Below, piece after piece: positions 1,802 to 2,876 of a stretch of 10,891 bases of DNA; the stretch's first letter is position 1; each line of letters opens with the position of its first letter. Below the pieces are notes generated by a model. It saw only the letters and a program-made list of their open reading frames with translations. It did no database searches and was not told the origin of the DNA. The stretch comes from Escherichia coli (GTDB taxonomy: Bacteria > Pseudomonadota > Gammaproteobacteria > Enterobacterales > Enterobacteriaceae). The stretch is from the NCBI RefSeq assembly GCF_003334355.1, contig NZ_QOWP01000055.1, one strand, 5' to 3'. The position numbers were made by a program, and so were the translations under genes.

Positions 1802-2876
1802 CTTCATCACTCCTTACTCTGGCATCAACCACATTAATATTGATCGCCACAGGCTGGGGATGTTCATTATCTTCCACCGTTTCGATCTCTTTGCGCAGCT
1901 TCTGGTTTTCCATTCTGCGCCGTTCAATTTCCAGTTCCTGTAGCCGTTTATCTGCACATAAAGCCCCGCCAGCAGAAAACAAACGCAACAATTCACGCCG
2001 GGCGGCAGCCTTATCCTCCAGCAGGATCTCAACGCCGAATTTTCCGAATTTTGCCCCTGCATATAATTGCCGCGCATCCCCATCAAGCAGAGTGGTATCA
2101 GCCATATAAAGCTGTCCCGTTCCCTCACCGCAGCACTTCGGGCAGTCCGGATTGGGTATGGCGTTATCAACAAAGCCGAGGCCTCCATATTCCGGTTCGG
2201 GTTTGCCATCTCTGGAAGCCTGCGCCGCTGCCTTGTCGAATTCTGCTATATCGCGCCACTGGTAGAGATGATTCTCGCCCCAGCAATAACGGCAGTTAAC
2301 ACGGCGAAATTGTGCAAGCTGATTGGGGTCGGCCAGGACAATAGCCATCAACTGACTCACTAGTAAATCCAGGTCTGCGGTATAGCGTTTCTGGTACTGA
2401 TTGCGGAAGTAGCTGATAGCGCGAAAAACCCTGGCATTTCTAAGCATACGACTGGCGTTGCTGTTAGCTGTCGCACCTTGCCCCTCATAACCGGCTAGTC
2501 GGTACGCCTCTGTCGGCTTTTTACCCTGAGCAACAAGCATCGCAAACTTAGCCTGCTGGTCAGAAATGCCGAATTCATCGGGACAGAACGAAAATTCCTC
2601 CGCGTCGCCCTCATTCAGGCCCGCATCGAATACTGGCTTTTTTTCCTGAGATTTTTCGTTCCGCTTTTGTGCAGTCTGCGCAGATTTTTTCTGCGCACTT
2701 TTTTGCGCAGTTTTGCACATTTCTGTCTGCGCATTTTTCGGAGTTTTTTTGATGTAACGACGGGCTGTTGCGTAATTCAGTCCCCTTGCTTCACACCATG
2801 CCACCGGAGATATACCGGAGCGGGTGTATTCAGCAATATACTCCTGCTGCAACGCCCCCCAGTCCGGTCTGCTCAT
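1782..2876 (-). CDS. Terminase small subunit, unusually long (364 aa), with N-terminal HTH, Lys/Ala/Gln-rich linker, Terminase_2-like core, Cys cluster and coiled-coil/acidic tail
   Basis: Segment AYRLAGYEG...ANSNASRMLRNARV resembles the small-terminase (Terminase_2 / P27-type) signature as recalled; N-terminal HTH-like stretch GISPVAWCEARGLNYATARRYIKK; Cys pairs CRYC ... CPKCC suggest a zinc ribbon; gene directly precedes and overlaps the large-terminase start. Confidence 0.75.
   Translation of the reverse strand: MSRPDWGALQQEYIAEYTRSGISPVAWCEARGLNYATARRYIKKTPKNAQTEMCKTAQKSAQKKSAQTAQKRNEKSQEKKPVFDAGLNEGDAEEFSFCPDEFGISDQQAKFAMLVAQGKKPTEAYRLAGYEGQGATANSNASRMLRNARVFRAISYFRNQYQKRYTADLDLLVSQLMAIVLADPNQLAQFRRVNCRYCWGENHLYQWRDIAEFDKAAAQASRDGKPEPEYGGLGFVDNAIPNPDCPKCCGEGTGQLYMADTTLLDGDARQLYAGAKFGKFGVEILLEDKAAARRELLRLFSAGGALCADKRLQELEIERRRMENQKLRKEIETVEDNEHPQPVAININVVDARVRSDEDDLSDA
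2665..2735. repeat. Cluster of short imperfect tandem repeats built on the palindromic core CTGCGCAG, each followed by a T-run, inside the 5' part of the small-terminase gene
   Basis: Seen directly: gtgcag / tctgcgcag / ctgcgcac / gcgcag / tgcaca / ctgcgcat recur at roughly 9-15 bp spacing between about 2669 and 2734; they encode the KTAQKSAQKKSAQTAQK low-complexity stretch. Confidence 0.55.

Follow-up and report, generated by a model that had tools for sequence, protein, structure and literature searches.

Pac sites composed of hexamer repeats within the small-terminase gene have been known from bacteriophage P1 since the 1980s, and pac sites set the start of lateral and generalized transduction and the direction in which host DNA is mobilized; to our knowledge, they have been determined experimentally for just a handful of phages. 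The P1 site occupies 161-162 bp inside pacA and contains seven hexamers, whose synonymous recoding cuts P1 packaging about 9-fold (PMC10028697). In the P1 sequence record, pac cleavage is placed at pacA nt 276-285, with an IHF site beside it, and TGATCA/G hexamers lie at pacA nt 194, 201, 213 and 228 and at nt 324, 336 and 347 (clusters 194-233 and 324-352). The subject of this study is an array of six TGCGCA-type hexamers in the small-terminase (TerS) gene of a Rac-like prophage, part of which forms a 10,891-nucleotide stretch of Escherichia coli DNA (contig NZ_QOWP01000055.1, assembly GCF_003334355.1), termed the window below. The comparative evidence indicates that this array is probably the pac recognition site of the prophage, organized in the style of P1 and bound by an N-terminal helix-turn-helix (HTH) of TerS. 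The relevant features are as follows.

2742-2876, minus strand: N-terminal three-helix HTH of TerS, codons 1-45, homologous to the P1/D6 PacA N terminus
2583-2741, minus strand: basic linker, codons 46-98, low-confidence model; its first part is the array translation
2668-2733, minus strand: hexamer array, six TGCGCA-type copies in 66 bp, TerS codons 48-71
2728-2733, minus strand: hexamer 1, TGCGCA (AAT GCG CAG = N-A-Q), gene nt 144-149; invariant in 33 relatives
2714-2719, minus strand: hexamer 2, one mismatch, coding TGTGCA (ATG TGC AAA = M-C-K); TGCACA on the plus strand
2704-2709, minus strand: hexamer 3, TGCGCA (ACT GCG CAA = T-A-Q)
2692-2697, minus strand: hexamer 4, TGCGCA (AGT GCG CAG = S-A-Q)
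2677-2682, minus strand: hexamer 5, TGCGCA (TCT GCG CAG = S-A-Q)
2668-2673, minus strand: hexamer 6, one mismatch, coding TGCACA (ACT GCA CAA); TGTGCA on the plus strand

The coding strand of the array reads AATGCGCAGACAGAAATGTGCAAAACTGCGCAAAAAAGTGCGCAGAAAAAATCTGCGCAGACTGCACAAAAG and encodes N-A-Q-T-E-M-C-K-T-A-Q-K-S-A-Q-K-K-S-A-Q-T-A-Q-K. A first-pass annotation of the window had described a palindromic core, flanked by T-runs, recurring five to six times at roughly helical-turn spacing within the 5' part of the small-terminase gene. The location is borne out, but the number of copies applies to the 6-mer TGCGCA, with four exact copies and two with one mismatch, and not to the 8-mer CTGCGCAG, which occurs once only (2676-2683). 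The center-to-center distances of 14, 10, 12, 15 and 9 bp (range 9-15, mean 12.0) lie slightly above a helical turn. The T-runs are real, being AAA Lys codons between the hexamers viewed from the other strand, but conservation of the element does not extend to them, as the array of the GC-rich Aeromonas phage phiARM81mr has seven TGCGCA and no A/T runs. The AA-dinucleotide periodicity of 11.5-12 bp at the array is the strongest among 2152 140-nt windows in the sequence, and no GATC is present within 2665-2735. In most E. coli relatives, the position of hexamer 2 is occupied by exact TGCGCA in another frame (ATG/GTG/TTG CGC AAA = M/V/L-R-K), and that of hexamer 6 by exact TGCGCA in 31 of 33. 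Elsewhere in the terS of the window there is a single TGCGCA, at gene nt 980 (K-L-R); a second hexamer cluster like that of P1 was rejected, since this copy is not kept in relatives.

The clustering exceeds what the encoded protein would require. There are 10 TGCGCA in the 10.9-kb window, as compared with 4.5 expected, and four of them sit within 57 bp. When the protein was held fixed and synonymous codons were redrawn from the usage of the genes of the window, 0.47 exact TGCGCA were expected in the array, as compared with 4 observed (P=3.5e-4), and 1.4 TGYRCA, as compared with 6 observed (P=5e-5). A motif-agnostic test, which shuffles the synonymous codons of each gene and looks for any 6-mer whose repetition exceeds that in the shuffled versions, gave P<=0.01 in 23 of 27 diverse representatives (0.0105 for two of the 23), with P<0.0005 for phiARM81mr and P=0.0005 for Klebsiella RothD. 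This test is conservative, because the experimentally proven pac of P1 reaches only P=0.098. The Sf6-like TerS of Gally, an LF82 prophage whose pac has been located within termS from read coverage, served only as a negative control (P=0.99); Gally was set aside as a precedent, its TerS being a 140-aa Sf6-like protein without the HTH-plus-array module.

Among 33 distinct E. coli-type genes, synonymous diversity is 0.045 in codons 48-71, as compared with 0.184 in the rest of the gene, whereas amino-acid diversity is equal in the two (0.131 and 0.130, respectively). In the same genes, variation is lower at hexamer bases than at spacer bases (0.025 versus 0.068; permutation P=0.04), and third codon positions within hexamers are the most conserved class, while the encoded residues change. 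For example, the codon before Ala may be AGT, GGT or GAT at hexamer 4 and TCT, ACT or TTT at hexamer 5, but its third-position T is always kept. The first-pass annotation had proposed this synonymous-site comparison and had taken free variation of the repeats beside a conserved protein as telling against a pac site; the opposite is found, in that the hexamers are kept while residues, frame and orientation change. DNA-level selection is thus seen within the codons of the flexible linker. These comparisons show that the hexamer array is conserved as DNA, not as protein.

More distant relatives follow the same pattern. In relatives whose protein identity is as low as 39%, the corresponding stretch again holds four to seven copies of the hexamer, and these occupy each of the three reading frames, encoding TAQ, xVR/MR/LR-K or KCAE. 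The terS of Klebsiella phage ST11-VIM1phi8.2, whose product shows 39% identity, carries six exact copies of TGCGCA within gene nt 138-201, distributed over frames 0, 1 and 2: ACT GCG CAA (TAQ; also PAQ), CTG CGC A (LR) and TGC GCA (CA). The multi-frame pattern is also shown by 80 IMG/VR loci (42-97% identity) and holds in about 50 distinct IMG/VR genes. Of 5426 complete E. coli genomes, 883 carry the 321-bp terS 5' region with the array (2560-2880), at >=99% identity in 548, 95-99% in 119 and 90-95% in 216, and it is nearly always single-copy and chromosomal in those carrying it. In E. coli 7/2 (NZ_CP023820), the match over 2560-2880 is 100%, array included.

In Klebsiella-type relatives, two to three further exact TGCGCA (VAQAIAQ) lie downstream of the main array at a distance of about 160 bp; these copies are absent from the gene of the window and recall the bipartite HEX4/HEX3 layout of P1 pac.

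L003 (ST11-VIM1phi8.2, gene 1501-2505), nt 360-398: extra TGCGCA copies
L004, nt 348-360: extra TGCGCA copies

Two accounts that dispense with a DNA-binding protein can be weighed against these results. In one, the array has no DNA function, and a K/S/T/A/Q linker has grown by slippage of 12-15-nt units, the palindrome arising from Ala-Gln codons. Tandem Repeats Finder does detect 12- and 15-nt periods, unit indels exist among relatives (KSAQKKSAQTAQK to KSAQTAQK, and an extra TAQ in L048), and the region is predicted to be disordered, but in-frame slippage cannot make copies in other frames or in inverted orientation, and it fails to explain why third codon positions in the hexamers are the most conserved while amino acids vary, or why the motif persists in a relative of only 39% protein identity and in an Aeromonas phage rich in GC. 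The codon-resampling tests likewise reject this account, which we consider largely disposed of and very improbable. In the other, UGCGCA copies, or direct and inverted copies together, form mRNA hairpins that tune the translation or stability of terS-terL. The 121-nt array RNA folds at -30.8 kcal/mol, as compared with -19.0 for shuffles (z=-3.9), and in three other lineages direct copies are followed by inverted copies that could form stems, but any cluster of palindromes automatically gives a low folding energy. It is the motif sequence that is kept, not a pairing geometry: there is no common hairpin topology, because the arrays differ in copy number (4-7) and in spacing (7-21 nt), some arrays consist only of direct, non-palindromic copies (TGCGAAT x4 in Yersinia phage vB_YenM_29.18), and motif retention was seen with no compensatory changes. 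A role confined to mRNA structure is correspondingly hard to credit.

The N-terminal domain of TerS, whose codons end just before the array, is homologous to the N terminus of PacA from P1 and D6 (hhalign 98.1%, E=9.2e-14, 46 columns); pairwise BLASTP gives 27% identity (E=0.001), and tblastn a match to D6 pacA with E=0.1. In the relatives, the motif repeated in the linker DNA changes with the type of this domain.

N-terminal ..A-R-R-Y-I-K-K: TGCGCA in linker DNA; 49 distinct sequences
N-terminal ..A-K-R-Y-I-K-I/V: TGCGAAT or TGCGAATTCGCA in linker DNA (TGCGAA); 6 distinct sequences
N-terminal MNETDWGAIRREYETDG..: GTTTCCAC x2, then inverted GTGGAAAC x3; Val-Ser-Thr versus Val-Glu-Thr
N-terminal MSKPEDSGLERDYCAG..: GTACGCA x4-5 in two frames, then inverted TGCGTAC
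One further lineage: GGGGCA x3, then TGCCCC/GCCCC

The HTH-plus-array module is also found on other TerS cores, and the correspondence between motif and HTH holds across three different TerS core families: phiARM81mr combines an ARRY HTH and TGCGCA with a different TerS core, and RothD has an AKRY HTH with TGCGAA, again on a different core. The comparisons thus establish, at the sequence level, an association between motif type and N-terminal HTH type. A simple specificity code in which Arg to Lys switches C to A fits the 49 versus 6 sequences, but it was rejected as incomplete, being contradicted by P1 PacA. In Rac-SA53 (L006, KU052037, 1351-2379; a 'gpOterS' fusion in the record), a deletion has removed the TerS HTH together with hexamer 1, and three of the five remaining hexamers (4, 5 and 6) have mutated cores (GTTCGCAG, CTGCGCTG and CTGCCCAA), while the spacers match those of relatives with an intact gene exactly; this mutation of hexamers where the HTH is missing is a single case that goes in the expected direction.

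It should be recognized that DNA-level selection and clustering show only that something reads the DNA, not which protein does so or why. The array could be a protein-binding site other than pac, either an operator at which TerS, or a different protein of phage or host, controls terS/terL expression, or a cis site for a function such as replication or recombination, and its position early in the late operon is such that binding there could block transcription or translation. With respect to an operator, however, the motif varies in step with the HTH class of TerS, also where neighboring genes differ (an 83-aa open reading frame (ORF) upstream of terS is missing in Klebsiella and Yersinia), the recognition of packaging DNA is an established role of TerS, and the only studied homologue of the arrangement, P1 pacA, is a pac site (PMC10028697). 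We consider a site of this other kind unlikely, though less so than either of the accounts without a binding protein. The proposal of the first-pass annotation that the repeats mark a plausible pac region is supported by the comparative evidence, since the hexamers are kept, the motif is tied to the HTH and the HTH is homologous to PacA.

For the binding of the HTH to the hexamers, the recruitment of the large terminase (TerL), the position of cleavage, the direction of packaging and its headful character, we infer the following scheme. TerS carries an extra N-terminal HTH (aa 1-45) on a flexible basic linker of ~50 residues, ahead of a canonical Terminase_2 DNA-binding/oligomerization core, with six TG(C/T)(G/A)CA hexamers ~12 bp apart in the DNA that encodes the start of the linker. 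Cooperative binding of the hexamers by several HTHs of one TerS oligomer could take place on phage DNA that is concatemeric (or still integrated); the irregular hexamer spacing of 7-21 bp across relatives would fit a long flexible tether, and in enteric phages A-tracts phased at 11.5-12 bp may help the DNA to curve. The TerS-DNA complex would then recruit TerL, which would cut nearby and begin a headful packaging series, probably directed toward terL and the head genes, i.e., toward lower window coordinates. The [ST]AQK repeats of the linker would be largely a by-product of the DNA motif, because the linker appears to tolerate almost any sequence.

Several observations weigh against identifying the array as a P1-style pac site read by the N-terminal HTH. 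The hexamer is TGCGCA rather than the TGATCA/G of P1 and lacks GATC, so that control by Dam methylation is absent; there is a single cluster of six, as opposed to the 4+3 arrangement (HEX4, HEX3) of P1 around a ~90-bp spacer; and, whereas P1 has an IHF site between its clusters, no IHF consensus (<=1 mismatch) is present within ~900 bp of the array or anywhere between 297 and 3702. Codons 1-47, the HTH-coding 5' end, are also low in synonymous diversity (0.068), and a recently spread recombination block may for this reason explain part of the conservation of the array. The HTH and the array adjoin and are hence inherited together, so that their co-variation could in part reflect linkage and not recognition, and P1 PacA carries the same ..TARRY.. 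helix but uses TGATCA/G. Recognition by TerS need not be motif-based at all, because the isolated DNA-binding domain of SF6/SPP1 TerS shows little sequence specificity (PMC4737164). The literature searched yielded no termini-mapping, binding or transduction data for this phage or close relatives; deposited 'vB_EcoS-...' phage records were rejected as a source of termini, as these are in-silico prophage predictions. TGCGCA repeats, a Rac-like pac site and an HTH-plus-array arrangement outside P1 were also not found in the searchable literature, beyond which lie most subscription journals, and this absence is no proof.

A broader reading is that an N-terminal HTH, PacA-like or of another type, and the linker DNA holding its own site array form a portable cassette that moves between unrelated TerS cores (Terminase_2-type, 933W-type and PacA-type) as a general rule, for and against which we find the case evenly balanced. 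The TerS of Stx phage 933W (L087, NC_000924, 1501-2307) has an N-terminal HTH of the same family (39.5% identity) and a different TerS core. Its linker, KIDHEIDHKTDHEIDHD (IDHE-IDHK-TDHE-IDHD), is encoded by four (C/T)GATCATGA repeats with an exact 12-nt spacing at gene nt ~139-186; the repeat motif contains GATC, as in P1, and its support from codon shuffling is weaker (P=0.06). These repeats are a candidate for a Dam-sensitive pac site of Stx phages, and no description of a 933W-type TerS array was found in the searchable literature. If the cassette is real, linker peptides such as AQK, ANSQK, VSTKK/VETKK, GTQK/VRK and IDHE would be essentially translations of pac sites, and the pac sites and specificities of many enterobacterial prophages, Stx phages included, could be read from sequence. 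Such a signal would allow prediction of which chromosomal flank these prophages mobilize, the design of packageable plasmids or of packaging-deficient wobble mutants (for which P1 and P22 offer precedents), and tests of how a ring of tethered HTHs reads a repeat array. The array would also neatly illustrate how a cis-acting DNA code can dictate the sequence of a disordered protein segment.

The remaining features of TerS and its neighborhood, with all listed genes on the minus strand, are as follows.

500-1810, minus strand: large terminase (TerL), Terminase_6N + 6C
1782-2876, minus strand: small terminase (TerS), 364 aa, Terminase_2, PHROG 51
2397-2564, minus strand: second, canonical Terminase_2-type HTH of TerS (SF6 G1P/Pam5-like), codons 105-160, preceding the oligomerization core
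2880-3131, minus strand: 83-aa ORF, immediately upstream of terS
3067-4020, minus strand: 317-aa protein, phrog_842, labeled glucosyltransferase, with no NCBIfam match
3992-4783, minus strand: ParB-like gene with nuclease domain (phrog_620)
4921-6396, minus strand: trkG moron

TerS belongs to the Terminase_2 family (PF03592, i-E=3e-7, residues 122-321; PHROG 51, E=1.7e-75). In its AF2 model (mean pLDDT 68), the helices of the N-terminal HTH are at residues 6-20, 24-30 and 35-38 (pLDDT 78-88), and linker residues 56-92 have pLDDT <50 and are probably disordered. A search of solved structures by sequence gave a weak match of residues 108-158 to Pam5 TerS; Foldseek with the model returned no matches with E<=0.001, the best being the SF6 G1P DNA-binding domain, with a TM of 0.73 on the target but E=1.2. 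Residues 195-248 (2130-2294, minus strand) form an insertion in the core with invariant C195-x2-C198 and C245-x2-C248 (CRYCWG ... CPKCCGEG), which looks like a zinc ribbon, unusual for small terminases, in a part of the model where AF2 confidence is low to moderate. About 20 database TerS variants (among proteins P0001-P0120) are frameshifted inside the linker but regain the frame after a few codons, e.g., KKLRKMRRQKCAKLRKK; each shift falls at an A-run (the A6-A7 runs of terS, window 2640-2760), and these are probably homopolymer sequencing errors in the assemblies, the alternative being real slippage at A7/A6. Array copy-number variants of 4-7 units also occur among the database variants.

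The genes for the phrog_842 protein and the ParB-like protein separate the trkG moron from the terminase genes, and the ParB-like gene, which directly precedes terS, may be involved in packaging. The 83-aa ORF matches the middle of phrog_309, a PHROG annotated as small terminase (E=8e-23), but Pfam yields no significant domain (DUF2766 scores best, at E=0.19); the ORF is not present upstream of terS in the array-bearing Klebsiella and Yersinia relatives. TerL has a weak match, below cutoff, to the PBSX family, and a search of solved structures by sequence gave no match. Downstream of TerL are a portal, a protein annotated as NAD+--asparagine ADP-ribosyltransferase, which in our own reading is a Mu-F/SPP1 gp7-like head protein, and an annotated P22-type coat protein. 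Pseudomonas phage F116, a generalized transducer, has a related TerS core, and by its gene content the packaging module looks to be of the headful type.

P22 and SPP1, which the first-pass annotation had named as precedents, fit this locus less well than P1, which is the appropriate comparison. The present TerS core falls in the same Pfam family (Terminase_2) as that of SPP1/SF6 and has an SF6-like HTH, and the SPP1/SF6 pac (pacL-pacC-pacR, with box a/b/c repeats, bound by the G1P nonamer), like the array, extends over the 5' end of terS. Both combine repeats with phased A/T tracts (PMC4737164 for SPP1/SF6), which suggests DNA wrapped or bent round a TerS ring. However, the box repeats hardly affect binding of the SF6/SPP1 DNA-binding domain, recognition being ascribed to DNA shape (PMC4737164), whereas the hexamer described here is sharply conserved, which argues for base-specific reading; also, the present TerS has an extra N-terminal HTH, which G1P lacks. 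In P22, the site is likewise within the TerS gene, and wobble-position mutants separate its DNA function from its protein function (PMC11260489). The array is nevertheless not a P22-type pac site, as it consists of a repeated 6-bp element and not of one non-repeated asymmetric site of ~17-22 bp, as in gene 3, and as its TerS is unrelated to gp3, which is without the N-terminal HTH-plus-linker module. In lambda cosB, three R sites are bound by the winged HTH of gpNu1, with a bend induced by IHF, and the complex positions the large subunit for a nearby cut. The reading of several short elements by an N-terminal HTH of the small subunit, established for lambda, is predicted here; cosB, in contrast, is non-coding, lies upstream of Nu1, has 16-bp elements and serves an IHF-dependent cos mechanism. 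The closest resemblance is to P1, although the TerS core is of the Terminase_2 type rather than the PacA type and the array begins 3 codons past the HTH as compared with about 20 codons in P1. In both systems, the array lies inside the small-terminase gene just past the codons of a homologous N-terminal HTH, consists of 6-bp TG-NN-CA elements that are clustered and occupy more than a single reading frame, and superimposes a coding sequence and a cis site, the latter being in the present case a putative one.

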